Shown: positions 27,481 to 45,204, counted from the first letter of the stretch. The stretch is DNA of 64,000 nucleotides from an uncultured Gammaproteobacteria bacterium (GCA_963797555.1 CAWCPV010000009.1:160001-224000), one strand, 5' to 3'. Translations and numbers: made by a program. Notes: generated from the letters alone by a model not told the origin.

Positions 27481-27513
27481 TGATGAGGACCTCCGGCAGG
27501 ATACCCACATGAC

Positions 27514-28928
27514 CATCCCATTACACACAACTTGATGACAATCGTGTAACATCCTGACATAACGTCACAAGATGGGGTGTCGGGATGAGCTGGGCGGCGG
27601 AGGAATTTAGGGGCATCGATTTGGGCGACAAGCGGCTGGGCAAGCGGGCCGTGTTGCTTGCCGAGCGGCTGGCGGAGAAGCCGAGCGCGAGCATTCCCGG
27701 AGCGTGTGGGGGCTGGGCCGAGACCCAGGGAGCTTACCGGTTTTTTGCCCACGACGAGATGGACTGGCGGGACATCCTGGAGCCGCACTGGCAGTGTTCT
27801 GCGGCCCGGATGCGGGAGCACGAAATCGTGCTGTGCATCCAAGACACCACGGAGGTGGACTTCAACGGGCAGGACATCGCTGGCCTGGGGCCGTTGAGCT
27901 ATGAGGCGCAACGCGGTATGTACCTGCATCCGACGTATGCCGTGACGCTCGCGCGCGAGCCCTTGGGCGTGCTGGATGCGTGGATGTGGGCACGCGAGCC
28001 GAAGGACGCCGAAGGCCCTCGGGGAGGTGTTCTGGAAAGCACCCGCTGGGTGGAGGGCTATGAGCGCATGGCAGAGCTGGCGTCCGAACTTCCACAGACC
28101 CGCCTGGTGTATGTAGCCGACCGGGAGGCTGACATCGTAGCCCTGATGGCCAAAGCGCGCGACCTGGGGCAGCCGGCCGACTGGTTGGTCCGCTCCCGGC
28201 ACAACCGTGCGCTGCCCGAGGGCGGCAAGCTGTGGGAGGAGGTGACCCGAGGCGAATGCCTGGGCGGGATACGCTTCACGATGCCGTCGCGCCACGGACA
28301 AAAAGCGCGGCAAGTCTGCCAACAGGTGTGGGCGAGGCGTGTGAAGCTCTCCGACGGCAAGGGGGGTCGGTTGGAGGCCACCTGCATCGTGGCCCGGGAA
28401 GTGGACGCGCCAGCAGGCGTGAAGCCCGTCGAATGGCGCCTGCTCACCAACCGTGAGGCCGCCAGCTTGGAGGCGGCGGCCGAGCTCATCGACTGGTATC
28501 GCGCCCGCTGGGAGATTGAACTCTTCTTCCACGTGCTGAAGAACGCCTGCCGCGTGGAGGCGTTGCAGCTCAGCACCATGGAACGCCTGGAACGGGCGCT
28601 GGCGCTATTCATGGTGGTCGCCTGGCGCATCGCCCGGCTGATGCGCCTGGGGCGCACCTGTCCGGACTTGGAGGCCGAGTGGTTGTTCGAGCGCGAGGAG
28701 TGGGAGGCAGCCTTCCTCCTGAACAAGAAACGCCCACCGAAGACGCCACCCCGACTGAACCAAGTGGTGCATCTCATCGCCAGGCTCGGCGGCTTCCTGG
28801 GGCGCAAGGGCGACGGCGAGCCCGGCGTGAAAACCCTCTGGCAAGGGCTCACGCGCGTCATGGACTTCGCGGCAGGACTGCACTACGCGCGTGAGGCTCA
28901 AGTCCTTTGAGTTGTGTGTAATGGGATG
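27514..28928 (+). mobile_element. Intact IS4-family (IS50/Tn5-like) element; transposase 27585-28910
   Basis: Perfect 19-bp IRs CATCCCATTACACACAACT; 9-bp TSD CCACATGAC (27505-27513, 28929-28937); IQDTT, VADREAD, YRARWEIELFFHVLK (YREK), LGGFLGRKGDGEPG. Confidence 0.96.
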
Positions 28929-29214
28929 CCACATGACCTAGGCCGCTTCGGTCGCAGGCAAAGCGCTCCGGTTTTGGCGATAGCGCCCCCGCCGCGGCCT
29001 CGCCCGGGAATTTGGGAGTTCCGAAGGACGACCCGTATCCGGTGCCCACCACCCTCCGGTGCGGTGGAGCCGCGTCCGGCCATCGTTCACCCGAGAAGTA
29101 GTTGCGTATCGGACCGCGCTGCCGCTCTCGGGCTGAAGCGATGGAGCCTGGGCGGCACCCCATGTGGGGCGGCGGCATGTGGGACCCAAAGGAGAGAAGC
29201 CTCCGGCGACCTGA

Positions 29215-29799
29215 TTACGGTTCTTTGCCGGCAAGGGCGTTCTCGATGCGTCGATCGGGCACAAGCCAAACCAGTGCAACCAGCACGTAGAGACCTTGAG
29301 AGAGCCGTTGCGACCAGTACGCCGCCGGAATGGCGATGATGTAGATCAGGGGCGATACCTTTCCCTTCCAATCGGCGCCGACAGCCTTCCGTAAGAGGGA
29401 GCCAGGACCTTGCGAGGCAATGATGAGTTGCTGCAGTATCCAGTACGCGATAGCGGCCATGAGCAGAACGACACCGTAGAAAGCCGATGGTGCCGCGGCG
29501 AAGTGATTCTCTCCCATCCAACCCGTGGCGAAGGGAAACAGTGATAGCCAGAACAACAGATGTAGGTTGGCCCACAGCATCGGCCCCGTCACCGTGCGAC
29601 ACGCATGCAGCATATGGTGGTGGTTGTTCCAGTAGATGCCGACGTAGACGAAGCTCAACACATAGCTCAAGAACACTGGGACCAATGGCGCAAGAGCATC
29701 GATCCTCTCGCCATGAGGCACCTTTAGCTCCAACACCATGATGGTGATGATGATGGCGATCACGCCATCGCTGAACGCTTCGAGCCTACCTTTGCCCAT
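29215..29799 (-). CDS. TMEM175/DUF1211 potassium-channel family protein
   Basis: RLEAFSDGVIAIIITIMVLEL, YWNNHHH. Confidence 0.92.
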   Translation of the reverse strand: MGKGRLEAFSDGVIAIIITIMVLELKVPHGERIDALAPLVPVFLSYVLSFVYVGIYWNNHHHMLHACRTVTGPMLWANLHLLFWLSLFPFATGWMGENHFAAAPSAFYGVVLLMAAIAYWILQQLIIASQGPGSLLRKAVGADWKGKVSPLIYIIAIPAAYWSQRLSQGLYVLVALVWLVPDRRIENALAGKEP

Positions 29800-29818
29800 T
29801 CAGGCCGCGCTCTTTCTC

Positions 29819-30085
29819 TCAAAGAAACTTCCACTTCACGACAACCGCGACCGCAGCAGGCAGCGAGAATATCAACAGGAAGATCGGCAGCTCTTCTCGT
29901 AAGGAGTATCCGGCCCGCGACATGCCACCCCACATGTTCCAAGCCGCCCCCAAAAGCCAGAGGACGACGAACGCCGTGGTGGCTGTCGTCGTGGACGAAG
30001 CGCTGGTGCTGGCAAAGAGTCTTGCAAACCCAAGGCAGACCGCCCAAAGTGCAAAGCCTCCAAGGATGATGATTACCGTGCGCAT
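29819..30085 (-). CDS. Small membrane protein
   Basis: Three hydrophobic segments, NMWGGMSRAGYSLREELPIFLLIF; RBS GGAGA. Confidence 0.6.
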   Translation of the reverse strand: MRTVIIILGGFALWAVCLGFARLFASTSASSTTTATTAFVVLWLLGAAWNMWGGMSRAGYSLREELPIFLLIFSLPAAVAVVVKWKFL

Positions 30086-30324
30086 TACGCGCTCTCCTGG
30101 TCGTTAGCAATCGATGAGCGAGGCGACTGCAGAAGGATAACGGATGGGCTAAACACACGCCATTACACGGAAGTGCTAGTTCCGACAATCACTCCGGCGG
30201 GAGGCCGGAATCCGGAGGCCACGGATGGCCTCGCTCGGCATCCCCGCCCCGGATTCCGCACACTCCTTGCGTGGAAAGACGAGATGTGTGTGAGGATATG
30301 GGCTGAACGATTCGGCCCCCCGGA

Positions 30325-30385
30325 GAGGGACTACTCTACGCCCGACCACGCCGGTCGCGCCGGTGACGAAGATTCGCATGTTCAC
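30325..30385 (-). pseudogene. N-terminal fragment of an NAD-dependent epimerase/dehydratase
   Basis: MRIFVTGATGVVGRRVVP Rossmann start, then similarity ends. Confidence 0.55.
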
Positions 30386-30722
30386 ATCGCTCCGCAGGTT
30401 CGATCAGGGGGCTCAGCGCCCGCCCAGTGCAAGCCGACCGTGGCAAGCCGACGGACAAGGCCATCTCGGTCTGGGTATGACCCCGGTTGGTGGGTCGTTG
30501 GGCAGGTTCCGACGGCGGTGCTACCATGAATCTTATACGTTCCACTTCGCCCCATAGGCGTGTCGTGGCGGTCCGGTGCCCCAGCGGACCGGGTTGCTTC
30601 GAAGTCCTGGACGAGCGATCGCTATTGCGCTATGCCCGGAGCGGCGTCATGAGGCAGCCGGGGGGCACCGGGCGTTCCGGCATCCAAACCCATCAGGTCC
30701 CGACCCTCGGAGGAGACCGGTC

Positions 30723-31878
30723 ATGAGATTCCGCTCCACGTATCCCGCCGCCGCAACCTCCGAACTCTTCCGCCTCGCCCATACGACGGGCGTCGAGCCC
30801 GGCGCGCTGGTCCAGGCTTGTCTCGCTCAGCTCGGCCCTCTGCCGGCCGATGCGAACCTGGGCTTCATCTACGCCAGCGACGCTCTGGCCCGCGAGCTGG
30901 AGGCCCTGGTGCGCCTGCTCAAGCAGGCCACCGGCATCGAGAGCTGGGTCGGCAGCGTGGGTGTGGCCATCAGTGTGACCGGCCACGAGTACTACGACCA
31001 ACCGGTCCTGGCCGTGATGGTCGGGAGCGTGCCTCCTGAAGGCCTGCATCTGATCCCCTCGCTCACGGCCGGCATCGAGGGCTTCCGCGCCGAGTGCGGC
31101 GAATGGCTGAGTGTGCACCAGCCCCACTTCGGGATCGTGCATGGAGACCCGACAAACCCCGCGACCCCCAGCCTGCTTTACAAGCTGGCGGAAGACACTG
31201 GGGCCTTCTTCGTCGGCGGCATCACCTCTTCGCAAAGCCAGAACCTGCAGGTGAGCGGCGGGATCGTCCGCGGCGGCATCTCGGGGGTGCTGTTCGACCA
31301 AGCGGTGGAGGTCCTCACCAGCCACACCCAGGGCTGTGCTCCCATCGGTCCGAAGCACCGGATCACCCACGCCGTCGGCAACGTCCTCGCCGAGCTGGAC
31401 GGAACGTCCTGCCCTGGACGTGTTCAAGGAGGACATCGGCCAGGTCCTCGCGAAGGACCTCCAGCGCGTCGCCGGCTATATCTTCGCGGGGCTGCCGATC
31501 GCAGGCTCGGATACCAGCGATTACATGGTGCGCAACCTTATCGGGATAGACCTCGGGCAGAAGCTGCTCGCCATCGGTGAGCATCTGACACCGGGGGAGG
31601 AGATCATGTTCTGCCGGCGCGATGGAAACACGGCCCGCGAGGACATGTTGCGCATGCTGCGCGACCTCAAGGCCCGCGCCCAGGGGCGCCAGATCCGGGG
31701 AGGGGTCTACTACTCCTGCCTGGGCCGCGGTCGCTACCAGTTCGGCGAGGACTCCGAAGAGCTCAAGATGATCGCCGAGGAGCACGGAGACTTCCCGCTG
31801 GTCGGTTTCTTCGCCAACGGCGAAATTTTCCACAACCGCCTCTACGGCTACACGGGTGTGCTGACGCTGTTTCTGTGA
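30723..31878 (+). CDS. FIST N/C-domain signal-transduction protein, frameshift near 31403
   Basis: FFVGGITSS, TQGCAPIG...ELDG | PALD...VRNLIGID...YYSCLGRG...PLVGFFANGEI...LYGYTGVL. Confidence 0.85.
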
Positions 31879-32206
31879 ATGCCGCGAGGGGGCCTGTTCG
31901 AGCGGCAGGCTAAATAAGCTGTCCGTTACCATTCCCTGTCCGCGGGCGCGAGAGCCGGCAGCGAGACCAGTCGAGACGATAAGGTCGCCCCAAAGCAGTA
32001 AGGCACGCATTGGTTGGGCGAGGGATGGCGTGCCCTGGAACCGTATTAACTTCGCCAGGGCCAGCCCCCTGTGCAAAGCGAACCACGAGCAAGTGTCTCC
32101 AAGTGCCCACAAGATTTCACAAGGCTGGACCTGACCCCGGTCCTCGGTCCTACAAGCGTCTTCGGGCGTCTACAAGATGGGCAGCTAGCAGCCCCGCCTT
32201 ACCCGA

Positions 32207-32509
32207 CTAGCCCCTTCGTCGCTGCCATTCTGCCGGATCGCGACTCACGTGAAGCACCGCCAGCACCACGATCACCTCGCCCTCAACGGCGAAGTAGACA
32301 GCGTACGGGAAACGGTGCGCCAGCGCTCGTCGGATCCCCGACCGCAAAGGCTGGTACTTCAGTGGCCCATCGACAACTCGGTCGTACGTCGCACGCAATT
32401 CGTCCAGGAACTCCCGACCGAGGCCAGCTTGCTCCTTCTCGTACCAGTCGAACACTGCCGCAACGTCCAGATCGGCTTGCGGCTGGGCAACAAGCCGATA
32501 CTCGGTCAC
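32207..32509 (-). CDS. RelE/ParE-family toxin
   Basis: FDWYEKEQAGLGREFLDEL...IRRALAHRFPYAVYF...VLAVLHVSRDP. Confidence 0.88.
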   Translation of the reverse strand: MTEYRLVAQPQADLDVAAVFDWYEKEQAGLGREFLDELRATYDRVVDGPLKYQPLRSGIRRALAHRFPYAVYFAVEGEVIVVLAVLHVSRDPAEWQRRRG

Positions 32510-32739
32510 CGATCTTGCTTAGCGAGGCGATCCAGCGCCTCATGTGCCGGCTGTGCACGGCTTGGATCTCGGCGGTACTCAGCAAGCCGCTCTTCGGCGA
32601 GTTTAAGGTGCGTCTCCGGGACCGGAATTTCGCCTGGCCTCTCGGCGATACGGTCCCAGAGTGCTTGCAGGTAGCGGATTTGCTCGGCCTTCGAAAGATC
32701 GCTGAACCCCATGGGTTCCGGAAGCGTAGTAGGTTGCAT
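32506..32739 (-). CDS. Putative addiction-module antitoxin
   Basis: LSKAEQIRYLQALWDRI...HLKLAEERLAEYRRDP; 4-nt overlap with toxin. Confidence 0.85.
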   Translation of the reverse strand: MQPTTLPEPMGFSDLSKAEQIRYLQALWDRIAERPGEIPVPETHLKLAEERLAEYRRDPSRAQPAHEALDRLAKQDR

Positions 32740-32820
32740 GCGTTACCCTCGCCATCAGGCTAACCCTAACCCATATCTCATGATTAGATAGATTAGATTG
32801 CATCATCCCTCCGGGCTCCG

Positions 32821-32900
32821 CGGTGGGGGCGCCGGTTAGCCGGCGCCCCCCGCTGTCCCCGCCGTGCAGTTTTCCGGCGCCGGGTTCCTCGGTTGCACTC
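32821..32900 (-). ncRNA. Degenerate group II intron domain V/VI remnant
   Basis: rc GAACCCGGCGCCGGAAAACTGCACGGCGGGGAC...GGGGGGCGCCGGCTAACCGGCGCCCCCACC resembles a D5 hairpin plus D6 stem. Confidence 0.6.
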
Positions 32901-33171
32901 GTTAGCGCGGCTTCGAGTCGAAAAACGCTAGATTACAAGACCTGACCCTCACGCGTGTGCGAGCCACACCCCCGTCAGAGCCTCATGCTACCCTTCTGAC
33001 GGACTCCCGTCACCTGCATAAATCCGATGGTAGACCCGCACGCGTGTGTGCTATCATTGGGTGCCTCCGATAGGGGAGGTTCCGGGTTGATATAGACTTG
33101 CAAACTACCGTGTTTAAGGTGTATTGGCCGTTAGGCGTCATCTTGTATTTATTCTACGGGGTTACTCCGGC

Positions 33172-33483
33172 ATGACAGACATTCAACACACACACCTTGT
33201 TTATTTGCGACAGTCCGTAGAAGAACCATGCCTTTCTTTTGTTCGCTATCAATGCGCCTCGTCTCCTTCGAACTACGACAAAACAAAAACAGATATATTT
33301 CTGTTATGCACAGATGTCGATGACCAGCACCCATACTACTTAAGCGTGACTGCTCACTATAATGAGAACGCAACAAGAAAACTTAAGATTCCGCATAATC
33401 TTGTTTTGATGATAGTCGAGGACCCGCATACTCCCGGAGAGCCACGCCTTTCATTTGGATTTGTTCCGCCTTCACCGGAATAA
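33172..33483 (+). CDS. Low-GC hypothetical protein
   Basis: AT-rich ORF MTDIQHTHLVYLRQ...RLSFGFVPPSPE; no recognisable motif. Confidence 0.5.
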   Translation: MTDIQHTHLVYLRQSVEEPCLSFVRYQCASSPSNYDKTKTDIFLLCTDVDDQHPYYLSVTAHYNENATRKLKIPHNLVLMIVEDPHTPGEPRLSFGFVPPSPE

Positions 33484-33559
33484 TCATCTTCGCTGCTTCC
33501 GGGCGGTAAAGTCCACACGGAACCACGCACCCGAATACCACTACGAGTGCGCAACTATC

Positions 33560-34355
33560 CATACAGAGATGCCACGCGATCTCGGCCATGCGTCGATTCG
33601 TCCCCGGCTCCCCGCAGAACCGGACTTGGAGGGTTACACCATCCGGCTCCCAGTTTGAGCCTTCCACCAAGGGATGGGATAGAGGTCATGGAGGATGCGA
33701 GCCACCGGCAACAAAGGACGAATGACCGCGCCGAAACGTTTCCAGGTCAATGAGCGTCGTTGGCTGCGTCGGTTCAGCCATTTGAACAGCAGGCCCGTGG
33801 CGAAGTACACGTACCCCGCCACGCCCCGACTATTGCCGCTGACGCCGTAATACTGGAGGTGGCCCCGGAGATGGCGGCCGACATAAGCCACCATGGCCGC
33901 TCCGCCCTGTGCCCGCAGGCCGCGCAGTCGCTCGCTCAGTTGCTTGAGCTTCGTGCGCACCCGCTTGGCGTCGGTCCGGCGTCCGACCACGAATCGTCCG
34001 CTGCGGCTGCACCCCACATAGTGGGTGAAGCCGAGAAAGCTGAAGGTCCGCGGTCCCTGGCTATCCCGGGCTTTGCATCCCAAGGCCTGACGGCCAAACT
34101 GCAGGAGCGCCGTCTTGCTCGGTTCGACCTCCAGGTCGAACTGCGCCAACCGTTGCGTCATCTCCATTAGGAAACTCCGCGCGTCGGCTTCCTGCTCGAA
34201 ACAGGCGACGTAATCATCGGCGTAACGAATCAGGTAGGCTTTGCCCTAACAACCCCTGGCGAAGCGTTTCTCGAACCAGAGGTCGAGCACGTAGTGCAGG
34301 TAAATGGTAAATGTTACTGAGTACGGGCGACACCAGTCCCCCTTGCGGGGTCCAC
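33560..34355 (-). pseudogene. 5'-truncated group II intron: RT/maturase pseudogene plus D5/D6
   Basis: TPQGGLVSPVLSNIY, LIRYADD, FSFLGFTH, LRGHLQYYG, WLNRRSQRR; 7-nt duplication GTAAATG and a TAG stop; D5-like GAGCCGGATGGTGTAACCCTCCAAGTCCGGTTC. Confidence 0.88.
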
Positions 34356-34401
34356 CTCAGTCTATTGTCCTTTCCAATCCCATGAAACTTCTCCTCCGCG
34401 T

Positions 34402-34655
34402 TCACTTCACCTTTTTGATGACCGGCGGCTTCCAGGTGCCGTCGAGGATGGCCTGGTCGGGCCAATAGGCGCGGAGCCAGATCGAGAAGTTCCCCACCGG
34501 CGCGGGCAGCCAGTTGGATTCCTTGTCCTTGCCCGGCGACGTGTTGCCGAGATAGATCGTCAGGCCGCCGTCGGGGTTGTACTTCAGTGTCTTGTTCTTC
34601 GTGCCGAGCGCGAAGCGCTTCAGCGCGTTCGGGTAGAAGAAGTGCGCCGGGTTGG
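34402..34655 (-). pseudogene. C-terminal fragment of a DUF1214-type protein
   Basis: [14 protein letters not shown]...[20 protein letters not shown]...DGTWKPP. Confidence 0.7.
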
Positions 34656-34664
34656 AGCGATAGT

Positions 34665-34840
34665 GGTCAGGTCTTGCAATCCAGCAGCATACAAGTAGTG
34701 GGGCCTAGTCTTGCACAGGCGTCGAGTCGCAAAACGCTAGATTACAAGACCTGACCCTCACGCGCCCTCACGCGCTAGATTACAAGACCTGACCCCACGC
34801 GTGTGTGACCCCACGCGTGTGGACCCCCACGCGTGTGCGA
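34665..34840. repeat. Palindromic GGTCAGGTCTTG...CAAGACCTGACC unit followed by tandem GACCCCACGCGTGTG repeats
   Basis: Inverted pair 34665-34682 / 34738-34756; second GCTAGATTACAAGACCTGACCC at ~34774; ~43-bp segment repeated at 32913-32955. Confidence 0.75.
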
Positions 34841-34956
34841 TTCCGCGAACCAGCAGATCCAACGTAACGGTCAAGGCATAAGCACGGCCCGGCACGAGGT
34901 GACGGCGGTAGAGGACGATTCACAACCCGCGCGCCAACGACGACAGGATACACACG

Positions 34957-34989
34957 GTAGCCCGGATGGAACGAAGTGGAATCCGGGGA
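34957..34989 (+). repeat. GTAG-type REP-like palindrome
   Basis: GTAGCCCGGATG...AATCCGGG; second copy at 60785-60815. Confidence 0.6.
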
Positions 34990-35331
34990 GCGGAAACCGG
35001 CGCCATTCCCAAGATGCTGTCGTCTCCCTCCCCGTCTGTTCCGCTGCAACCCTGTCCCTCAATTCTGCTGGGCTCCATCGAGGCTGCGAGTTACGGACTG
35101 CGCTCGCTTCCGCGTCATCAAGCTCGCGGATGAGGCGGTCAACGTGTTGGCCGCGAGGAGTCAAGCCTGTCCTGCGCTTGTCAAAGGGACCGGGCGCGCA
35201 TGGTGCCTCAAGGAGGCACAGGATGTTACAAGAATGGACCAGACCCTAACCCGACGAGGCATTGAAACTCGTCGGCCGGCTATGGCGGGGCGGGATTCGA
35301 CAAGAGTCCTGCCCTTGCTATAGTAGGGGCT

Positions 35332-35597
35332 ATGGCAAAGGTTCCCGGCAAACTGCAGGTGACTATCCCAAGGCGGTCGCCGAGCGGTTGGGCATTCGCC
35401 CCGGGGACAAGATGGATTGGGTGCCCGCCGGCGACGCCATCCGCGTCGTTCCCTAAGGCGCTGCGCCGGCTGCCCGCGCCGTGCAAGAACGGCTTCAGAG
35501 ATTCGACCAGGCCACCGAGCGCCAGCGTGAGCGCGAAAGGCAGGAACCCGCGGCACTCGCCGAAGCTCGCGTCTGGACCCGAGACCAGCTCTATTGA
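35332..35597 (+). pseudogene. AbrB/MazE-type antitoxin pseudogene (no partner toxin)
   Basis: MAKVPGKLQVTIP / AVAERLGIRPGDKMDW...WTRDQLY with a frameshift and an internal stop. Confidence 0.7.
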
Positions 35598-35723
35598 GGC
35601 TTGCCGGGCGGGGCGAGCTGCAAAAGGGCACCACAGAATTCGGTGCGCATGTGTTATAAGGTTAGACCTGACCCTGAAGCCCTTGCGGACATAGCCTAGC
35701 TGCTGACTACCTTTTGGAGTGAC

Positions 35724-36548
35724 ATGAACCTTCTCGATGAACTCGTTCGCCGCTGCAGCGATGTAATATCCCTAGCGGAAGGCGGTCAGAAGAAGGTACT
35801 TGCGGCGGTCCACCCAGAGTTCGGGCCTGTGGTCATCAAGTATGGCGAGTATCGCTACTCGTCAAGTCTAGAGCGCATCTCGCGGGAAGTCGCCCTTCTG
35901 CGAGAGATTGAGTCCCGGTACTATCCCAAGCAGTACGAGTTCCTGATCGAGCCCGTCGATCGAGTGTTTCTCGTGGTTGAAGAGCGCCTCGACGCAGTTG
36001 AACTGACGCGGGTGAAGAACCGCTTTTCCTCCGATGCCGAGATTTCGGGCCTATTGGCTCACTTGGTCTGTGCTTTGAATGTGATCTGGCAGCGCAACGT
36101 TGTTCATCGGGACATCAAGCCCGCAAACATCTTGATTACGTGCGACAACGAGCCAAGAATCATTGATCTAGGAATTGCGCGTTTCCTCGATGACACGTCT
36201 CTAACTGCAAGTATCGCCGGCCGCGGTCCTGCAACTCCGATCTATGCGGCCCCTGAACAGTTGGTCAACAGGAAGGCGATGATCAATGTGCGCACAGATT
36301 TTTTCTTGCTTGGTATTCTCGTGTTGGAGTTAATGCACGGCTTTCATCCGTTCGACCCGCAGCATGTTGGCAATCAGAATAGTCTCTTAGAAAACATCAT
36401 GCTCGGCAGTTACGTCCCAGTTGATCAAGATCGGGACGGGCGGTTAGTTGGCTTCGTAGAGCGGGTGTTGCAGACACAGCCGTTTAAGAGATTGAGGACT
36501 GTGGACGCACTGATGACTCAGCTCCGAATGGATCGTCAATCATGCTGA
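35724..36548 (+). CDS. Hanks-type Ser/Thr protein kinase (stand-alone, no TM segment)
   Basis: EGGQKKV, VVIK, HRDIKPANIL, IIDLGIAR, YAAPEQ, TDFFLLG. Confidence 0.93.
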   Translation: MNLLDELVRRCSDVISLAEGGQKKVLAAVHPEFGPVVIKYGEYRYSSSLERISREVALLREIESRYYPKQYEFLIEPVDRVFLVVEERLDAVELTRVKNRFSSDAEISGLLAHLVCALNVIWQRNVVHRDIKPANILITCDNEPRIIDLGIARFLDDTSLTASIAGRGPATPIYAAPEQLVNRKAMINVRTDFFLLGILVLELMHGFHPFDPQHVGNQNSLLENIMLGSYVPVDQDRDGRLVGFVERVLQTQPFKRLRTVDALMTQLRMDRQSC

Positions 36549-39234
36549 TCTACCACCAATGTGGACATAACTTCATCTGGGATATTCAGTCGCTCCAGGC
36601 TGACTACACTGGCGATGGATTGATTATATCTCCAGTCAACGTGGAGGCGGATCGTGTACGGGATCGGGTACCGAAGGACATTCTAGCCAAGAGCTGGATG
36701 GATCCCCAATTCTATTTGTTGCACGATAGCAAGGGCAAGCTCGCCACGTATCCGTTCTTCCCCGGCAACGTTCTGGACGACTTTACGACTGCCGAGTTCG
36801 TGAGCCACGCTCCACAAGTGGCCGAAGAATGCCTGGCCTTTCAGCATGAGCTGGGACTTAGGTATTCGGTCATTCCAACCAGGTACTTCGAGGATCTGCC
36901 CGGCGATTATTTAGAACAGCTAAGTTCACTGTTCGTCGAGCCCTTTATTGAAGCCAAGCATGCACTGGGGCTGACTGAGCCCCTGCTGCTTACGGTGATC
37001 GCCAAACCGCTGCATATCTCGCCCGGGCCTATGCGGGACGAACTGCTTTCGTGGGCAACCAGCTACGAAGATGTGGCCGGGATCTACCTGCTTCTTGACA
37101 ACAACTTTTACTCCAAGCAAATAAAGGATCCCGGGTACCTTGCTGGGGCGCTGAGGTTCGTACGCGCCCTCCGGCAGAATGACTTAGAGGTGCATCTTGG
37201 GTATTGTGGGTTGGAGGGTCTACTTTTGGGCTCTTTCGGTAATTGTGTGGATCGTGGTGGTCGAGTAGCATCCGTTCTGAGCAATCGTCTATCACAACAT
37301 CTTGTGGTTGGGCCTGTGGGGTTGTGGGCGAGAGGCCCGCGAGTGTGGGCAACCGGGAGGTTGTCCACACGGTCCTTGGGACGCGGGCCGCTCCGCAGGA
37401 CTCGTCCACAAATCCACAGGCCATCAAGGGGGGAGCGCCATGGAGCCAACGCATCTATTCACGACGGCACTGGGCCTCACGGCGCCTTGGGAAGTCACCG
37501 GCGTACGCTTTGACCCCGAGGCTGGGCGCATCGACCTCGAGGTGGCCTTTGCCAAGGGGAGCCGCTTCGCCTGCCCGGCGTGCGGAGTGCCAGGCCAGCC
37601 GGTGCATGATACCCGCAAGCGCAGCTGGCAGCACCTGAGCTTCTTTAAGTCACGGGCAGACCTGCACGCGCATCTGCCGCGAGTGCGCTGTGAGAGCTGC
37701 GGCAAGACGACTCAGGTCGAGCCGCCGTGGGCGCGCGCACACAGTGGCTTCACCGCGCTGATGGAGGCACTGGTGGTGACGCTGTGCCAGGCGATGCCGG
37801 TGGCGACCGTCGCCCGGCACCTGGGCGTGGGCGATGAGCGCCTGTGGGGGGTGCTCGAGCACTACGTGGAGGCGGCCCGCGCCCAGGAGGACCACTCCCC
37901 GGTGCGCGCCGTGGGCCTGGACGAGACCGCCGCCCGGCGTGGGCAGCACTACATCAGCCTGTTCCATGACCTCACGGGAAAACGCCTGCTGTTCGCCTGC
38001 GAGGGCCGCGACCAGAGCACCGTGGCGGCCTTTGCCGCCGACCTCCAGGCGCACGGGGGCGACCCGCAGGCCATCGAGCAGGTGTGCATCGACCTGTCCG
38101 CCGCTTATCTCGCCGGGGTGACCAAGCATCTGCCTAAAGCCACGGTGAGCTTCGATGCCTTCCATGTCATCCAGCTCGCCAACCAGGCCGTCGATACAGT
38201 GCGCCGCGAGGAGGTCAAGACCGAGCCCGCCCTCAGGGGCACCCGCTGGACCTGGCTCAAAGACGCCCACGACTGGACCTGGGAGCAGCTCACCGACTTT
38301 CACTGGCTCTCCCGCGCCCGCCTCAAGACCGCCCGTGCCTGGCGCCTCAAGGAGGCGCTGCGCGATATCTACGCCACGGCCAGCACCCTCGAGCAGGCCG
38401 AGAGCGCCCTCGGGCGCTGGTATAGCTGGGCACGGCGTAGCCGCCTGCAGCCCATGAAACGCCTCGCCACTACCCTGAAAGAGCACTGGGACGGCGTGCT
38501 CGCCGCATTCCACTCCGGCCTCACCAACGGCCGCGCCGAGGGCATCAACTCCCTCATCCAGGCTGCCAAAGCCCGCGCCCGAGGCCACCGCACCACGCGC
38601 TCGCTCATCACCATCGCCTACCTCATCGCGGGCAACCTGGCCCACTTGCCGGCCTTGCCGTTCAACACACGATCTTGTGTCAGACCTCAGGCAGAGGCTG
38701 CCGCAGCGTAAGCATATCTACCCACACGATTCCGGTAAGAACCTACTTTTGTCATTGGCGGACCCTACCTCCGTTACCGTTGGTTCTTACGAAAATCTGC
38801 GGTCATTTGGAACGCTACGTCTCGAAAGCCGTGAGCCGAGGATCCGTCGTGGACCGCGACCCAGAATCTACTCGGGTCGCCTCATACAATGGGTCGAAGA
38901 CACCTTCCTGCCTCCCCTGCGGCAGCTCATGCCGGACTGGCGGGACTACTTTGACGATTCACCATACAAAGACTACCTCCTCGATCCCCACAGCTTCCTT
39001 AGTTTTCAGCGGTCAGAGATCTACAAGCACTATTTCTTTATTTTTTCTCGGCAAATAGAGGCGCTTCCCGCTGTTCCTCAGCGTGCCGGCTACTTAAGTG
39101 GCCGGGTGACGGAGGCTCTGGAGCTGTTCGAACAGATTAGGGCAGCACGTGTGTTCCTGGACTCAGACTCCGACTACTCGCATCTACCCGGATGGTTGAA
39201 CGCCATTGCGATGTTCCAGGAGCAGCCGGAATGA
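36542..39234 (+). pseudogene. ~389-aa hypothetical protein interrupted by ISL3 (36542-37228 joined to 38752-39234)
   Basis: Removing the IS and one TSD restores the frame: ...GYCGLEGLLL|SLADPTSVTVGSYENLRSFG...; overlaps both neighbouring genes. Confidence 0.88.
37229..38743 (+). mobile_element. Intact ISL3-family element (copy 2); transposase 37440-38711
   Basis: 8-bp TSD TACTTTTG (37221-37228, 38744-38751); CPAC...CESC zinc finger, GLDE, IDLS, FDAFHV, TNGRAEGINSLIQ. Confidence 0.96.
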
Positions 39235-39848
39235 CACAAACGGCGAGCGGCTTCCAGTCAGAGGCTGCACTGGTTCAGAAAGGTCGGCGGCTCATACGTG
39301 GCGCCCTCCGAAACGTAGATGGACAAGTCCGGACGCGCTACGAGTTACCGGCCCCGGGTGCGGTCCCAGATTTGGTGATCTTTAGCAAGAGTTCCAACGA
39401 GGTGCAGTATGTGATCACCGTTGAATTCAAGCTTAGTGACTGGCGCCGAGCTATAACTCAGGCATTCCGCCATCGCAACTTCGGAAACGAGGCTTATGTA
39501 GTACTCGATCAGGCTCGATCGGCTGCCGCCGTTCGCCACGTTGATCTCTTCGAAAGAGCAAACGTTGGTCTAGTAACGGTTGATGCGGAGAATGTGGTAA
39601 GGGTATGGCATTACCCACAGCCTGGATTGCCCTTCTCGTCACAGTTTTCCCGCGCGGTGGCACGGGCACTTCTCGGCTCGCATCGAACGGTTCCAGCCGA
39701 CCCTCCTTTCGTTCGAAGCATTCGTGGTGGGATAGCCCTTGCGGGGCTGAGGAGGACTTGGGGCTCACCGCAACACGCCCCGTCGGCGGCATCATCCCCG
39801 GTCGGGCATGGCACAGCAAAAGGGCTTACGACGCCTACTCATTCGTAA
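39231..39848 (+). CDS. PD-(D/E)XK nuclease-like protein
   Basis: SEAAL...VPDLV...TVEFKLSDWRRAITQAFRHRNFGNEAYVV...VGLVTV; ATGA overlap with upstream stop. Confidence 0.7.
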   Translation: MTQTASGFQSEAALVQKGRRLIRGALRNVDGQVRTRYELPAPGAVPDLVIFSKSSNEVQYVITVEFKLSDWRRAITQAFRHRNFGNEAYVVLDQARSAAAVRHVDLFERANVGLVTVDAENVVRVWHYPQPGLPFSSQFSRAVARALLGSHRTVPADPPFVRSIRGGIALAGLRRTWGSPQHAPSAASSPVGHGTAKGLTTPTHS

Positions 39849-39875
39849 CTGCGGCAGCGAAATAATTCGACCCTG

Positions 39876-39984
39876 GCCCAACGGATTGCGCTTAACCTTC
39901 CGGGTGCGGCGGCCGCAAGCAAGACGGACTACCATCTTGGCAGGAGGGGCCGCCGCACCCGGCAGCTTCAAGTGCGTATTATGC
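39876..39984 (+). other. attC-like site
   Basis: GCCCAAC ... perfect 15-bp IR CCGGGTGCGGCGGCC/GGCCGCCGCACCCGG ... ATTATGC (one mismatch to GTTRRRY). Confidence 0.55.
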
Positions 39985-40286
39985 GGCGACTCCCCGGCCG
40001 TGACTGTGCGTTTCGGATCGCTGCATTGATCGTGTCGAGGAAGTCGTCGTCTAGTTGGCGGATGCCGCGTATCGGCCACGGGAATGCCGTGCTGCCTTAG
40101 ATACGTTGCCAACTTGTACCTAAAAGGTCAGATTCCAGACTAGCCGCGCCTGGCGGTCCGGTCAAGGGGTCGCCGCACAACAGATCGTCCAGTAACTGGA
40201 GCCGCGTGGTTACAGGACACCGGCCGCACCACCCACGAGCCAGGCGAGCGTCCCTGTTCGGGCGCCGAAGATTCGATCGAAGCCGC

Positions 40287-41204
40287 TTACCCCTCCTGCG
40301 GAGCGTCGTAGCGCTCGTCGAACTGCTGGGCCTCGCTCTTTTCCGCCTGTCTGCGTTCGGCGAGCCGCTCCCGCGCGCGCTCCAGCCGCTTCTCCCGCGC
40401 CCCCTCGCGCAGCGGGATGGTGTGCTCTCCGAACAGCACTTGCTTGAGAAAACGGAAGGCGAAGCACAGCAATGCTTCTTCGTCCGCCAGGAGCTGCCGC
40501 TGCGTCTCCGCTTCCAGGTCGAAGACTTCCTGGAAGCCGGGGCTCTGGACGAACTCGCGGAAGCTGTCCGGGTCGTAGCTGCACATGTCGAAAAGCTGCA
40601 TGCTGCGCTCCGTCGGCTTGCCGACGGTCGGGCCGCTGGAGCGCTTTTTGATGACGATGTCGCGCCACTCGGCGTTCATCTCGTCGTACTTGTCGACGCC
40701 CTGCTCCTGGCGGTACGCCCTCACGGTCAGGCGGCGGGGCTCGAAATGGCCCAGGCAGTGGGCTTCTCTGACGAGGAAGTAGATGTCCTCGACCTGCGCG
40801 CTTTCCTTCTTGCGCACTCCCATGCTCCCCAGGGCGTAGTAACGGCAGGCGGCAGGCCGGTCCTCGTAGACGCCGCAACCTTCCTCCGTGAGGAACACAC
40901 ATTCCTGGGTGCCCGGCTTGGTGAGGAGCTTGAGACCAGGCATGCCGAGGTGGTCCATCTCGAACGGCACGCTGTACCGGGCGACGAACTCCCTGGACAG
41001 CATTCCCAAGCGCTGCTTGAGCCGCAGGATGTCGTAGGGCGTCAACTGGATGTCGATGCTCTTGCAGCACGCGTTGAAGCAGGCGATTCCCTTGTGGCAA
41101 TCGAACTGGATGGTGTCGTCCAGTCCCAACTGCACGGGCTCGATGGGGCTGCGGCTGGGAAGATCGAAGGGCTTTGCCGATAGCTCGTCCAGTGCTTCTG
41201 ACAT
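40287..41204 (-). CDS. YkgJ-family cysteine-cluster protein
   Basis: FDCHKGIACFNACC, CVFLTEEGCGVYEDRPAACRYY, EAHCLG. Confidence 0.88.
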   Translation of the reverse strand: MSEALDELSAKPFDLPSRSPIEPVQLGLDDTIQFDCHKGIACFNACCKSIDIQLTPYDILRLKQRLGMLSREFVARYSVPFEMDHLGMPGLKLLTKPGTQECVFLTEEGCGVYEDRPAACRYYALGSMGVRKKESAQVEDIYFLVREAHCLGHFEPRRLTVRAYRQEQGVDKYDEMNAEWRDIVIKKRSSGPTVGKPTERSMQLFDMCSYDPDSFREFVQSPGFQEVFDLEAETQRQLLADEEALLCFAFRFLKQVLFGEHTIPLREGAREKRLERARERLAERRQAEKSEAQQFDERYDAPQEG

Positions 41205-41379
41205 ACGTGCTTACTCCCGGCGGACGCGCCTGGTAGGGGGGATGAGTAAAGCATACAACGAGTACTGGTGGGAGCCCAGCGTGACGGCGGAACGGCTCGC
41301 GGAGCACTGCCTGCAGAGAACAGAAGGGCCGGGCGCCCTCTGGGGCGCCCGGCCTGCGGTACCCGCCCGTGCGGGCGTC

Positions 41380-43356
41380 CTAGACTGCAGCAGCCGGCCG
41401 CGAGATTCCCTCGGGCTCGCCGGGGGCCGGTTTGATGAGCTGCTTGTACGCGACCTTCTTCAGGTTCCACTTGCCGGTGTTGCGGTCGTAAACGGAGTTC
41501 ACGAAACACTTCCAGTTCTGGTCGTCGATCTTCATGAAGTCCGCGCGGTAGTAGTAACCCGGATAGCGGGTCTCCTCGCGGAACTGGATGTGCTTCATGT
41601 GCGCTTCCGCGGCGATGATGCGGTGATAGTTCTCCCAAGCGCGGAGCAGCTCGTGAAGGTCCTTGGCCCGCATCTTCAGGGAGTCTTCCTTGAGCATCTG
41701 CAGCTTGCGCTCGGCCACCTCCAGCATCTTGGCGTTGGTCTGGTAGAAGGTCGAGGTGCCGCCCACATACTCGTCCATGATCTTCTGCAGGCGGAACTGC
41801 AGCATCTTGGGGGTGATGTAGTGCGGGTTGATGTCGATGGCCGTGGTGTAGTCCTTGTGCTCCAGGAAGGTGCGCACGGGACGGTAGATCTCTTCCAGCA
41901 GCTCGTCCACCGAGCGCGCCATCTCGGGCTTCCAGGTCTTGTTATCCATGACGAACTTGACCATGGCCTTGGCGGCGATGCGCCCCTCGGTATGGGACCC
42001 GGAGGAGAACTTGTGGCCGGAGGCGCCGACGCCGTCGCCCGCGGTGAACAGACCCTTCACCGTGGTCATGCGGCTGTAGCCCCAATGATAGTGATCGGGG
42101 GTGCCGGGGATGTCCGCGGGACCGGAGACCCAGATGCCGGCGCATCCCGCGTGGGAGCCGAGCAGGTAGGGCTCGGTGGGCATCAGCTCGGACATCTCCT
42201 TGTCGGGCTCGATGTTCTCGCCCGCCCACACGCCGCACTGGCCGATGGTCATGTCCAGGAAGTCTTCCCAAGCCTCGGCCTCGAGGTGCTTGATCTCCTT
42301 GGGAGTCATGGTCTCGGCCAGCTTGGCCATGGCGCTCGGGGTATCCATGAGGATGGGACCGCGGCCTTCCTTCATCTCTTTCATCATGAGATGGTTGCGC
42401 AGGCAGGTTCCCATCTTGGCGCCTTCGGCATATGCGTCGTAGCCGTGGTCCTTGAGGATGTGGGCGTTCTTGGTCTGGTAGTCCTCGCCCATGGCGTTCA
42501 TGGCCTTCGCCTTGAACAGCAGGAACCAGGCGCCCACCGGGCCGTAGCCGTCCTTGAAGCGGGCCGGCACGAAGCGGTTCTCCATCATGGTCATCTCGGC
42601 CCCGCACTCGGCCGCCATGGCGTAGGTGGAGCCCGCATTCCACACCGGATACCAGGCGCGGCCCGTGCCCTCGCCTACGGAGCGGGGACGGAACACGTTC
42701 ACGGCGCCGCCCGCGGCCAGCAGACAGGCCTTGAACTTGTAAATGAACAGCTTGTTCTCGCGGACGCTGAAGCCGGCGGCACCCGCGACGCGGCTCGGAT
42801 CGTTCTTGTCGGTCACCAGGCGCACGATGAACACGCGCTCCTCGATGTTGTCCATGCCGAGCGCCTTCTTGGCCGCCTCGGCCACGATCCACTTGTAGGA
42901 CTCGCCGTTGATCATGATCTGCCAGCGCCCGGAGCGCACCGGCTTGCCGCCCTCGGTGAGGCGCTTGCCTTCATCGCCGGGCTGCTTCCACACCGGCAGG
43001 CCCCACTCCTCGAAGTGGTGGACGGAGTCGTCCACGTGACGGCCCACGTCGTACACCAGATCCTCGCGGATGATGCCCATCAGGTCGCCACGCACGTAAC
43101 GCACGTAGTCGGCCGGGTCGTTCTCGCCCATGTAAGTGTTGATGGCCGAAAGACCCTGCGCCACAGCCCCGGACCGGTCGACGGCAGCCTTGTCCACCAG
43201 CTTAACCTTGATGTCGACACCCTGCTGCTTGGCCTTCTCGATCCAGCGCATGACCTCGAAGGCGGCGCCGCAACAGGCCATGCCGCCGCCGATGAGGAGG
43301 ATATCGACCTCTTCTTCCACAATCTGTGGGTTACCGAACCCGTATTGATCTGCCAT
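41380..43356 (-). CDS. aprA: Adenylylsulfate reductase alpha subunit
   Basis: GGGMACCGAA, RSGAVAQGLSAINTY, WQIMINGESYK, ENRFVPARFKDGYGPVGAWF. Confidence 0.98.
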   Translation of the reverse strand: MADQYGFGNPQIVEEEVDILLIGGGMACCGAAFEVMRWIEKAKQQGVDIKVKLVDKAAVDRSGAVAQGLSAINTYMGENDPADYVRYVRGDLMGIIREDLVYDVGRHVDDSVHHFEEWGLPVWKQPGDEGKRLTEGGKPVRSGRWQIMINGESYKWIVAEAAKKALGMDNIEERVFIVRLVTDKNDPSRVAGAAGFSVRENKLFIYKFKACLLAAGGAVNVFRPRSVGEGTGRAWYPVWNAGSTYAMAAECGAEMTMMENRFVPARFKDGYGPVGAWFLLFKAKAMNAMGEDYQTKNAHILKDHGYDAYAEGAKMGTCLRNHLMMKEMKEGRGPILMDTPSAMAKLAETMTPKEIKHLEAEAWEDFLDMTIGQCGVWAGENIEPDKEMSELMPTEPYLLGSHAGCAGIWVSGPADIPGTPDHYHWGYSRMTTVKGLFTAGDGVGASGHKFSSGSHTEGRIAAKAMVKFVMDNKTWKPEMARSVDELLEEIYRPVRTFLEHKDYTTAIDINPHYITPKMLQFRLQKIMDEYVGGTSTFYQTNAKMLEVAERKLQMLKEDSLKMRAKDLHELLRAWENYHRIIAAEAHMKHIQFREETRYPGYYYRADFMKIDDQNWKCFVNSVYDRNTGKWNLKKVAYKQLIKPAPGEPEGISRPAAAV

Positions 43357-43985: not shown

Positions 43986-45204
43986 TCAGCGGGCCGAATG
44001 ACCCGTCAACTTGACCTCGACCTTCTCGTGCTCGGCGAGACTTCCGTAATACTTCCGCAGGACGGCGAGCACCTCCGCGCGGCTGAACTCGGCCGGCACT
44101 TCCCCGCCCTCGGACAGAGCCTTGCGGAGCTTGGTGCCGGACAGCAGCAGCCGGTCCTCGGCCCGATGCGGGCAGGTCTTCATGGAGGCCATGCCGCCGC
44201 ACTTGTAGCACCAGAAGGTCCAGTCGATCTTGAGCGGCTTGGTCTCCAGCGCGTCCTTGGGAATCTCGTCGAAGATATGGTGGGCGTCGAAGGGGCCGTA
44301 GTAGTCGCCCACGCCGGCGTGGTCACGGCCGACGATGAGGTGCGAGCAGCCGTAGTTCTGGCGGAACAGGGCGTGCAACAGCGCCTCGCGCGGCCCTGCG
44401 TAGCGCATGTCCAGGGGGTAGCCGGCCTGCACCACGGTGTTCTTCACGAAGTAGTTTTCCACCAGGGTGTTAATCGCCTCGGCGCGCACCTCGGCGGGAA
44501 TGTCACCCGGCTTCAGCTTGCCGAGCAGCGAGTGGATCAGCACCCCGTCGCAGATCTCCACCGCAATCTTGGCGAGATACTCATGGGAGCGGTGCATGGG
44601 GTTGCGCGTTTGGAACGCGGCGACCGTGCTCCAGCCCTTGGACTCGAACAGCGCCCGGGTCTGGGCCGGGGTCATGTAGATATCGGGGTACTTGGTGGGG
44701 AATTCCCCTTGGGACAGCACCTTGACCGGACCCGCCAGGTTCACCTCCCCCTGCTCCATCAGCATCTTCACGCCGGGGTGGCCGCCGTCCGTGGTCTTGT
44801 ACACCATGACAGCTTCGTGCTCCTTGTCGATGGTGTACTTCTCGGTGATCTTCATGGTCGCCAGGGTCTCGCCGCTCTCGCGGTCCACCAAGGCGACGTT
44901 CCGAGCCGACCTTGACCGAGTCGGCCGTGGACGGGTCCGTCGACAGGGTGATGGGGATCGGCCAGAACAGACCGTTGGCGGTGTGATAGCCGTCACACAC
45001 CCCTGCCCAGTCGGCCCGGGTCATGAACCCTTCCAACGGGGTGAAGCCGCCGATACCCATCATGATCAGGTCTCCCGTCTCGCGGGAAGAGATGTGCACC
45101 TTGGGCAGGGTGGCGGCGCGGGCTTGCTCTTGCTCCAAGCGCTCGCCGGTAAGCAGCAGCGGCTTGAGATCTCCCCCGCCGTGGGGTTTCACTAGCTTCG
45201 ACAT
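43986..45204 (-). CDS. sat: Sulfate adenylyltransferase, apparent frameshift near 44905
   Basis: [55 protein letters not shown]. Confidence 0.95.

Follow-up and report, generated by a model that had tools for sequence, protein, structure and literature searches.

What is the function of three adjoining, overlapping genes found in an uncultured Gammaproteobacteria bacterium, and do they belong together at all? The genes occupy positions 35724-39848 of a 64,000-nucleotide stretch (GCA_963797555.1 CAWCPV010000009.1:160001-224000), which is called the window here. They encode a Hanks-type Ser/Thr kinase, a protein predicted to be a TIM barrel of an undescribed family, and a small nuclease of the PD-(D/E)xK type. 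The finding is almost certainly real, and the three genes almost certainly form a conserved and mobile module. This trio is best read as an undescribed, self-contained mobile conflict system, most likely a defence against phages or other mobile elements, with a probability of roughly 0.6. The copy in the window is itself inactivated by an insertion sequence (IS) of the ISL3 family that lies in the second gene.

The features of the locus are the following.

35724-36548, plus strand: gene 1, a Hanks-type Ser/Thr kinase of 274 amino acid residues (aa), identified by Pfam Pkinase.
36542-37228, plus strand: N-terminal part of gene 2, 229 codons of a 389-aa protein, predicted from homologue alignment and model to be a TIM barrel (undescribed family, fold like that of the tRNA-guanine transglycosylases, TGT).
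37221-37228: left copy of the target-site duplication, TACTTTTG, 8 bp, read directly.
37229-38743, plus strand: ISL3-family insertion sequence of 1515 bp, identified by Pfam and by its multiple copies in the same genome.
About 37434-38711, plus strand: intact open reading frame (ORF) of the ISL3 transposase, with DDE_Tnp_ISL3 (4.5e-71), HTH_Tnp_ISL3 and Zn_ribbon_ISL3.
38744-38751: right copy of the target-site duplication, TACTTTTG, read directly.
38752-39234, plus strand: C-terminal part of gene 2, 160 codons and the stop, in the frame of the ORF 38677-39234.
39231-39848, plus strand: gene 3, a small PD-(D/E)xK nuclease (restriction-endonuclease fold) of 205 aa, assigned by motif and fold, ORF intact.

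An initial annotation of the window had described three co-oriented and overlapping genes of lower guanine-plus-cytosine (GC) content, and coordinates, junctions and GC profile all agree with it. All three ORFs lie on the plus strand. The TGA of the kinase (36546-36548) and the ATG of gene 2 (36542-36544) overlap in ATGCTGA at 36542-36548, and the stop of gene 2 and the start of gene 3 share ATGA at 39231-39234. The GC content of the trio genes is 0.50-0.55 (36000-37000 and 38750-39500), compared with 0.61-0.70 in the flanks and 0.66-0.70 inside the IS. A scan of the locus found no promoter or terminator signal exceeding those of shuffled sequences. A lookup of sequencing runs returned one DNA run with 0.09 of the sampled words and listed no RNA run.

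The same annotation held that gene 2 is split by the ISL3 element and can be restored to about 389 aa, and this is borne out by the TACTTTTG repeats and by alignment with homologues. The reading frame of the N-terminal part continues inside the IS up to 37513. Both halves (229 and 160 aa) align end to end on intact 389-aa homologues; in the intact relative L001 (related loci are cited by L number), positions 437-1123 and then 1124-1600 match the two halves with no residues missing. Since the halves align without a gap, the IS must lie between codons 229 and 230. This point falls between barrel strand 7 and the invariant GSYENLR motif of strand 8, so that the interrupted product cannot fold as a barrel. 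The genome holds 45 matches to the element; 15 cover its full length and are 98-100% identical, and for three the identity rounds to 100%. So many full-length and nearly identical copies indicate that the element is in an active burst and that the insertion into gene 2 is recent. Two more ISL3 fragments lie on the same contig, at C9:162696-163527 and 165985-166659 (window 2696-3527 and 5985-6659).

Whether the three genes belong together can be judged from related loci. A set of 70 was assembled, 65 from a scan of one genome per species, three from IMG/VR contigs and two from plasmids, and scored with profiles of all three proteins and with tblastn. All three genes are present in 60 loci. Nine loci lack one gene, and eight of the nine end about 270 nt or less from gene 2 on the side of the missing gene. 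L022 has a gene 2 truncated by the contig end, and L061 has no kinase and only a C-terminal fragment of gene 2, behind a 943-aa ORF. Because contig ends or truncation explain the missing genes, the trio is complete wherever the DNA permits the test.

The initial annotation had proposed to check whether homologues of the three genes co-occur and keep their order. They do co-occur, the ten incomplete loci being either cut by contig ends (nine) or truncated (L061). The order is kept in part: 53 loci have the window's arrangement of kinase, gene 2 and gene 3, and seven have one of two others. Five of these seven have the kinase and gene 2 followed by a convergent nuclease gene, and two, both on plasmids, have gene 3 ahead of the kinase and gene 2. 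The adjacency of kinase and gene 2 is preserved in all three orders, and most junctions overlap by 1-4 nt or are less than 10 nt apart. Constant gene content despite varying order is strong evidence for a joint function of the three products. Among metagenomic matches, the longest contigs listed for gene 2 and for gene 3 agree in length, a mere hint that the two genes lie on common contigs.

The first of these products is a Hanks kinase with all catalytic motifs, as had been annotated. It matches Pfam Pkinase (PF00069) at 2.8e-29 with 102.7 bits, against a cut-off of 31.7, and consists of a bare 274-aa kinase domain without sensor or repeat domains. Among 27 trio kinases, the catalytic positions K39, E55, HRD 128-130, N135, D148-x-G150 (DLG) and E178 of the APE motif are invariant or at least 90% conserved. 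Further invariant or nearly invariant features are the GGQ glycine loop, K132, T161 in the activation loop, D192 and R256. Judged from these residues, the kinase should be active. It falls below the NCBIfam equivalog cut-offs for MAD6 (73.4 against 460), PglW (20.9 against 990) and Stk1/PknB (PknB-PASTA, 69.8 against 450). Its matches to PADLOC kinase models, mad6 with 98.8 bits and PD-T4-6 with up to 92.3 bits (17-270 of 292 profile positions), do not exceed the score of the generic Pkinase family.

The product of gene 2 is recognizable chiefly by its predicted fold. A model of an intact homologue, P0001, shows a (beta/alpha)8 barrel with a helical C-terminal extension (predicted local distance difference test, pLDDT, 88.8; predicted template modelling score, pTM, 0.90). 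An exhaustive VIA-align search with this model ranked the following structures highest, with root-mean-square deviation (rmsd) and number of aligned residues for the first two.

1iq8, archaeosine TGT (ArcTGT): Z 19.3, rmsd 3.4 A, 291 aligned.
3unt, bacterial TGT: Z 18.3, rmsd 3.7 A, 297 aligned.
6fv5, QTRT2: Z 16.8.
7ui4, DNA preQ0 insertase DpdA: Z 14.8.
9ntn, Cap10 of CBASS (cyclic-oligonucleotide-based antiphage signalling system): Z 13.4.

Chains of the TGT superfamily thus hold ranks 1-5, and every unrelated barrel has a Z of 13.2 or less. Foldseek against PDB and BFVD returned weak generic barrel matches (E about 4e-4) and a few viral queuine tRNA-ribosyltransferases (E 8e-3 to 8e-2). 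The ESM Atlas returned unnamed "hypothetical protein" clusters only.

At the level of sequence, gene 2 belongs to a family of its own. With its N-terminal half as query, 174 of 623 candidate proteins were retrieved at E <= 0.001. Lengths of 386-395 aa prevail, and the nearest relatives, of 389 aa, are 79% identical. Precomputed Pfam domains are absent from all 174, and where a name is given, as it is for a few, it reads "hypothetical protein". No Pfam family, TGT and PF14350 included, is convincingly matched by any of 33 intact homologues, even with a threshold as loose as E <= 10; the two halves have no NCBIfam or PADLOC match (E <= 0.1), and the family profile has none among PDB sequences at E <= 10. 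Membership in the TGT sequence family (PF01702) was accordingly rejected, with none of the 33 homologues matching at E <= 10 and an hhalign probability of 0.1 against 24 ORFs from bacterial TGT loci. TGTs have a zinc site, CxCxxC...H, in their C-terminal subdomain. This site is absent from gene 2, as C97 is the sole invariant cysteine in the 33 sequences.

What the family does conserve is a set of 50 invariant columns in the 33 sequences, rich in polar residues after strands: H5, Q6, N33, D54-P-Q56, R114, K192-Q193, E225, E243-N244, R267, Q275, H322 and H373. The C-terminal motifs GSYENLRSF, YKHYF and DSD.SHL..W are also invariant. D54, E225 and E243 are acidic invariants and thereby candidates for the catalytic Asp pair (nucleophile and general acid) of TGTs. 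Such a dense invariant polar set argues for an enzyme or a sensor of a ligand or nucleic acid rather than a scaffold. Gene 2 is therefore probably a transglycosylase-like TIM barrel of an undescribed family, as far as the models go, and it may act on nucleobases.

It had been suggested that gene 2 is a barrel like those of the beta family. The barrel stands, as modelled, and the relation to that family does not. Beta_protein (PF14350) is among the Pfam families without a match in the 33 homologues, and NCBIfam has none for either half. An hhalign comparison with five genes adjacent to sce7726, presumed to be sce7725-like (two of them unrelated to the other three), gave a probability of 0.3.

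One prediction ties the first two products together. A complex was modelled from the window's kinase (27-row alignment) and the barrel P0001 of another genome (33-row alignment). The interface score ipSAE was 0.83 in three of three runs, and the best of three controls scored 0.00. The mark applied to this score is reached by 58 of 80 solved complexes and by 2 of 110 mismatched pairs, counts that are rough since own alignments were used. The runs share at least 92% of their contacts, with a partner pLDDT of at least 89. The interface joins the C-lobe of the kinase (residues 178, 183-186, 188-190, 252-254 and 258-262) to outer helices of the barrel (122-128, 166-176 and 209-214). It includes residues conserved in the respective families, namely E178, K184, R190 and R258 of the kinase and L169, W171, T173 and N213 of the barrel. 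To our knowledge, no similar kinase-barrel complex has been described, and it is therefore unlikely that the score stems from the memory of the model. These predictions support the view that kinase and barrel bind each other.

Gene 3 had been credited with nuclease-like motifs, and both motif and fold fit the PD-(D/E)xK type. The motifs are E38, PD46-47, E65-x-K67 and Q77; among 40 sequences D47, E65, K67, W71 and Q77 are invariant, and E38 is at least 90% conserved. The AlphaFold model has a pLDDT of 89.4 and strands at 33-37, 48-54, 57-67 and 87-93. Its fold matches include the following.

3dnx: Z 9.6, Foldseek 2.9e-4.
PaqCI: Z 9.2.
Can2: Z 8.2.
2vld, NucS-type endonuclease: Z 8.0.

XisH, FokI and many others rank below, and the 50 best-ranked entries consist almost entirely of nucleases with the PD-(D/E)xK fold. 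NCBIfam and PADLOC have no match to gene 3 (E <= 0.1). A likeness to sce7726 had also been proposed, and it did not hold at the family level: sce7726 (NF033832, cut-off 70 bits) is not matched, and a six-frame search of the genome returned no candidates. Compared with five sce7726 proteins by hhalign, gene 3 reached a probability of 9% (E 0.0037), with 105 columns of the nuclease core in register, which is a weak likeness.

The nuclease varies in size between lineages. Copies in Bacteroidota have about 150 aa and consist of the core only, and the subclade of the window has a conserved C-terminal tail. Divergent nucleases, all on the minus strand, are found at L062:6262-6924, L064:4265-4909 and L065:9137-9799. 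In these three loci an insert of about 70 aa separates the catalytic D from ExK; it may be DNA-binding. Single members of the divergent group have weak Pfam matches to winged-helix families (HTH_34, HTH_24 and Rpc34).

Some variants of the trio include a fourth gene, for a phosphatase-like protein. Genes for PP2C, found by Pfam and family search, adjoin the trio at five loci.

L062:6921-7571.
L063:1814-2497.
L064:4916-5587.
L065:9783-10445.
L015:6294-7010.

These comprise all four divergent loci with a convergent nuclease (L062-L065) and one standard locus (L015). Calcineurin-like metallophosphoesterases adjoin the trio at two further loci, and a third lies 7 kb away.

L093:11970-12728.
L097:7198-7887.
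L095:1967-2752, at 7 kb from the trio.

The three metallophosphoesterases are weakly related to one another. The phosphatase genes of these variants point to reversible phosphorylation. The phosphorylation control that had been suggested for the trio is thus plausible, given a kinase with intact catalytic residues and the variants with PP2C or metallophosphoesterase genes, and the defence function attached to it is still a matter of interpretation. The PP2C of L065 also has a weak match to the PADLOC candidate PDC-M21C (55 bits).

How widely has the trio spread? A profile of gene 2 compared with 1.84 billion cluster representatives (50% identity) matched 900 at E <= 0.001 and 580 at E <= 1e-10. 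Among the 150 representatives listed, lengths range from 84 to 413 aa, full-length members having about 380-413 aa. No fusion of gene 2 was found among these 150, nor in a search for longer homologues, which is weak evidence. The carriers belong to at least 10 bacterial and archaeal phyla. Bacterial carriers are found in Bacteroidota (most), Ignavibacteriota, Chlorobiota, Balneolota, Chloroflexota, Bacillota, Acidobacteriota (Vicinamibacterales), Verrucomicrobiota, Spirochaetota and Thermodesulfobacteriota. The archaeal carriers are Methanocellaceae, Aenigmatarchaeota and a haloarchaeal plasmid. Cultured carriers include Flavobacterium potami (locus L009), Bacteroides timonensis (L017) and Parabacteroides gordonii (L042). 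Apart from that plasmid, copies of the trio are carried by a Bacillus mycoides plasmid and by three IMG/VR viral contigs. The genome of the window has a single copy, and none of 60 other genomes of the same class, 52 of them at least 90% complete, carries the trio.

A quick maximum-likelihood tree of gene 2 was built from 53 complete-trio loci, omitting the window's split copy and 17 incomplete loci. Branch support is given by the Shimodaira-Hasegawa-like approximate likelihood ratio test (SH-aLRT). An archaeon, a viral contig, Bacillota and Chloroflexota fall into one clade (SH-aLRT 99), and a copy from Chlorobiota is sister to one from Flavobacteriaceae (SH-aLRT 100). The trio is thus mobile and sporadic, and horizontal spread between distant bacteria and archaea is supported.

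The neighbours of the trio were annotated by Pfam in 15 genome loci (150 ORFs) and four further loci (70 ORFs), and 98 selected flank ORFs were scanned with PADLOC. An example of a defence context is L046:4372-12897, where the trio and an IS200-type transposase gene lie between hsdR and hsdS/hsdM of a type I restriction-modification (RM) system (MTase_I, 643 bits) and split its operon. The flanks of L058 encode Schlafen/AlbA, an Mrr-type nuclease, a type IIG RM enzyme (572 bits) and the candidate PDC-S59. On the archaeal plasmid L097 a type IIG RM enzyme adjoins the trio, as does an HD-PycTM effector-like protein in L035. The flanks of L036 hold a Uma2 nuclease (PDC-S03) and a RES-Xre pair, and those of L015 a PIN-like protein, an integrase and ISL3 copies. 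A recombinase and an integrase adjoin the trio on the plasmid L096, and L042 and L094 contain prophage or lysogeny modules with an integrase or serine recombinase.

Another example is the IMG/VR contig L093:36-8091, which carries the P4-satellite genes Psu, AlpA, Ash, DUF5375 and a P4-type primase. A type I-B retron reverse transcriptase (369 bits) lies beyond psu, and the trio is located on the opposite side, roughly 1 kb downstream from the primase. The hotspot published for P4, in the portion of the source that is accessible, is the psu-int interval (PMC9122126), and the trio of L093 is therefore outside it as described there. Complete genomes of E. coli contain no DNA nearly identical to this trio.

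Other loci are less telling. The flanks of L051 (an IetA-like AAA ATPase) and L052 (a dGTPase-like protein) are ambiguous. L005, L009 (suf genes), L017, L019 and, apart from its PP2C, L065 have housekeeping flanks only. A further check proposed by the initial annotation, whether the trio sits near known defence genes, thus has a mixed outcome: the trio is often beside defence or mobile genes, and in about half of the 15 genome loci it is not. The neighbourhoods fit a gene of defence islands; any enrichment is an impression and not a statistic.

In the window itself, the trio is part of a variable stretch of about 16 kb, with rpsP-rimM-trmD-rplS/ogt on one side and aprBA-sat on the other. A tyrosine recombinase (24063-25058) lies on the rpsP-rimM-trmD-rplS/ogt side of this stretch, which also contains an IS4/Tn5-type transposase (27585-28907) and a ParE/antitoxin pair (32210-32739). 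That pair upholds in part the claim of toxin-antitoxin (TA) modules nearby; a second candidate, the MazE-like ORF at 35262-35456, is below cut-off. Intron remnants had been reported as well and were not recovered, since 33637-34167 has no Pfam match and 24000-41500 no Rfam match.

Several other observations concern the surroundings. The roughly 2.4 kb that follow the tyrosine recombinase (25100-27500) contain several ORFs of 84-252 aa without Pfam or PADLOC match, which make up uncharacterised island cargo. The sat gene (ATP-sulfurylase) beside aprBA consists of two overlapping ORFs at 43989-45204 on the minus strand, with PUA_2 1-101 in 44584-45204, and PUA_2 93-158 and the ATP-sulfurylase domain in 43989-44996. 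The arrangement points to either a frameshift or an error of sequencing in this core gene of sulfate reduction. Similarly, FIST N and FIST C are found in two overlapping ORFs (30576-31577 and 31336-31875), and PfkB matches two ORFs at 17911-19083; these are possible further frameshifts or pseudogenes.

Another feature of the family is that gene 2 is broken repeatedly. Besides the window, it is damaged in four loci. In L004:2767-8000 (Vicinamibacterales), gene 2 is split at residue 84/85 by a 5.2-kb insert with two tyrosine recombinases and an IS66-type transposase, a disruption independent of that in the window. L048:1990-2130 contains a frameshift in a T-run, L054:8200-8330 an in-frame stop, and in L061:5157-8471 the C-terminal fragment directly follows the 943-aa ORF. 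The kinase and nuclease ORFs remain open in the damaged loci, where their sequence is present. Some of these loci are metagenome bins, and their defects are possibly assembly errors. If the breaks are real, the barrel does not serve as an antidote that the cell dies without; more likely, losing it silences a costly system.

What, then, does the trio do? That it is a defence or conflict system in the broad sense is a shade more probable than the anti-phage or anti-element reading given at the outset. A mechanism can be proposed tentatively, with the odds somewhat against it in this form: a sensor complex of barrel and kinase would gate the nuclease, and a phosphatase would reset it. In this model, an active Hanks-type kinase would be stably bound to a TIM-barrel protein whose fold resembles that of the transglycosylases, and this barrel would be an enzyme or a sensor of a ligand or nucleic acid. 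Upon infection, the complex would sense a phage-derived cue. Next, the kinase would phosphorylate the nuclease or other targets. The small PD-(D/E)xK protein would serve as a DNA-cutting effector, such that DNA is cleaved or the cell is arrested. In the variants, the PP2C or calcineurin-like phosphoesterase would then reset the switch.

Several points weigh against a defence system of this kind. About half of the 15 genome loci are without clear defence neighbours (L051 and L052 offering ambiguous ones only). PADLOC matches none of the 10 ORFs scanned in the window's flanks, and the INPHARED phage collection contains no match to the trio. The kinase-barrel complex is a prediction in which the partner barrel comes from another genome. 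The likeness of gene 2 to TGTs is structural only, given the Pfam and hhalign results. The nuclease as a substrate of the kinase is a proposal, and proteins of the Metallophos family are not necessarily protein phosphatases.

A bolder version of the defence reading, and an unlikely one, is that the barrel represents a new branch of the transglycosylase fold that is switched by its bound kinase. It would act directly on nucleobases of invading DNA or of tRNA, by excising or exchanging them, and the nuclease would finish the attack. If true, such phosphorylation-gated, base-targeting immunity would be without a described counterpart and common to bacteria, archaea, plasmids and satellites.

Alternately, the trio may work in the manner of an RM system. 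Here the barrel would modify or swap a base in host DNA, the nuclease would cut unmarked DNA, and the kinase would tune the balance. DpdA, which inserts preQ0 into DNA, is among the top structural matches of the barrel (7ui4, Z 14.8), a nuclease partner is always present, and RM systems are frequent neighbours. However, the flanks of 15 loci contain no DpdB, DpdC or QueC-type gene, and the gene 2 family has neither the sequence signature nor the zinc site of TGTs. Moreover, the barrel is broken beside an intact nuclease ORF in the window, L004, L048 and L054; cells that relied on a protective barrel would scarcely tolerate this state, although polar effects or assembly errors could account for it. 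On balance this model is rather improbable.

Somewhat less is to be said for a type IV-like or base-excision activity, in which the barrel would remove unusual bases (7-deazaguanines) from phage DNA and the nuclease would cut at the lesions. The dense invariant polar residues of the barrel would suit such an enzyme. So would its fold, which in the TGT superfamily binds 7-deazaguanine or guanine in nucleic acids or, in Cap10, on protein, according to the accessible part of the source (10.1101/2025.04.06.647259). The argument is one of fold likeness alone, and it leaves the kinase with no obvious role. The chance of this model is slim.

Equally slim is the chance of an addiction or stress module of the TA type that stabilises mobile elements, comparable to modules of kinase, substrate and VapC. 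The trio does occur on plasmids and beside recombinases, and a complex of kinase and partner is predicted. There is also a precedent in the CapK/CapS/VapC module, where, in the portion of the source available, a kinase-substrate pair is tied to control of a nuclease (PMC13373217). Against this, many chromosomal copies lie in non-mobile contexts, and a broken barrel beside an intact kinase and nuclease makes the barrel unlikely as an antitoxin. TA and defence roles are in any case not mutually exclusive.

An ordinary signalling or metabolic operon, in which the kinase regulates a TIM-barrel enzyme and no conflict is involved, is very improbable. TIM barrels are typically metabolic enzymes, and several loci, for example L009 beside suf genes, have housekeeping neighbours only. 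Such an operon would not be expected to be as sporadic as the trio (1 of 61 genomes of the class), to mix phyla and domains in the gene 2 tree, or to have an obligatory nuclease partner. Nor would one expect to meet it within an RM operon or carried by plasmids and viral contigs, with neighbours that vary by locus. Finally, it is just as improbable that the kinase is a single-gene defence of the PD-T4-6 type (or Stk2 or MAD6), with genes 2 and 3 as accessories. Mad6 and PD-T4-6 are its best PADLOC matches, but they score below the generic Pkinase family, and the NCBIfam cut-offs are far off. Wherever the contig extends far enough, genes 2 and 3 are both there, and binding between the kinase and the product of gene 2 is predicted.

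Should the trio be a defence system, it is a widespread new immunity module, represented by some 900 clusters of gene 2 at 50% identity among gut and soil Bacteroidota, many other phyla and archaea. Of its three protein families, two have no catalogue entry. It would also be a compact model of a kinase, joined by a phosphatase in some variants, that gates a nuclease, and it may yield a new nucleobase-directed enzyme. If the proposed fold relation is true as well, it would represent a second recruitment of the transglycosylase fold into immunity after Cap10, wired to eukaryote-like Ser/Thr phosphorylation and not to nucleotide signalling. For the genome at hand, the window records a recently acquired set of island genes knocked out by the ongoing ISL3 burst.

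The initial annotation did not recognise the layout as a named system, and this is upheld: PADLOC-DB v2.0.0 (2023), NCBIfam 20 and Pfam contain no match to the trio, only the kinase matching kinase models. No trio of a kinase, a TGT-like barrel and a PD-(D/E)xK protein was found described in the literature, where an unnamed entry in supplementary system lists is possible. The accessible portions of PMC12839542, PMC9122126, PMC13092281 and PMC9519451 make no mention of one.

Four groups of known systems can be compared with it. The Dpd systems (DpdA) and type IV CBASS (Cap10) are alike in that the model of gene 2 is closest to their TGT fold. In Cap10, as far as the available text of the source goes, a TGT-like barrel has been reshaped so that it binds a partner enzyme within an immune system (10.1101/2025.04.06.647259), much as the barrel of the trio is predicted to bind its kinase. 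They differ in that gene 2 has no sequence relation to them and no zinc site, and that its partners are a Hanks kinase and a small nuclease. Their companions (DpdB, DpdC, helicases, CD-NTase and QueC/Cap9) are absent from the 150 flank ORFs of 15 loci and the 70 of four further loci.

Stk2, PD-T4-6, PglW of BREX type 2 and MAD6 of MADS share with the trio a Hanks-type kinase with intact catalytic residues in a mobile, sporadic locus. Unlike them, the trio kinase is a bare domain, and its obligatory barrel and nuclease partners are found in none of them. The pairs of sce7726 with sce7725 or beta protein (gop-beta-cII) resemble the trio in combining a small PD-(D/E)xK-type protein with a partner of 310-375 aa, sometimes convergently and with a sporadic distribution, whereas the profiles of gene 2 and gene 3 match nothing in six sce7726 loci at E <= 10.

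The CapK/CapS/VapC module, in the part of its description that is accessible, likewise joins a kinase and a bound partner to control of a nuclease in an immune or TA locus (PMC13373217). CapK is there an anti-sigma-factor-type kinase and CapS a STAS-domain repressor, folds that are absent from the trio. As a system, the trio is thus rated categorically new; as a principle, a sensor-kinase that gates a nuclease is a variation on known themes.

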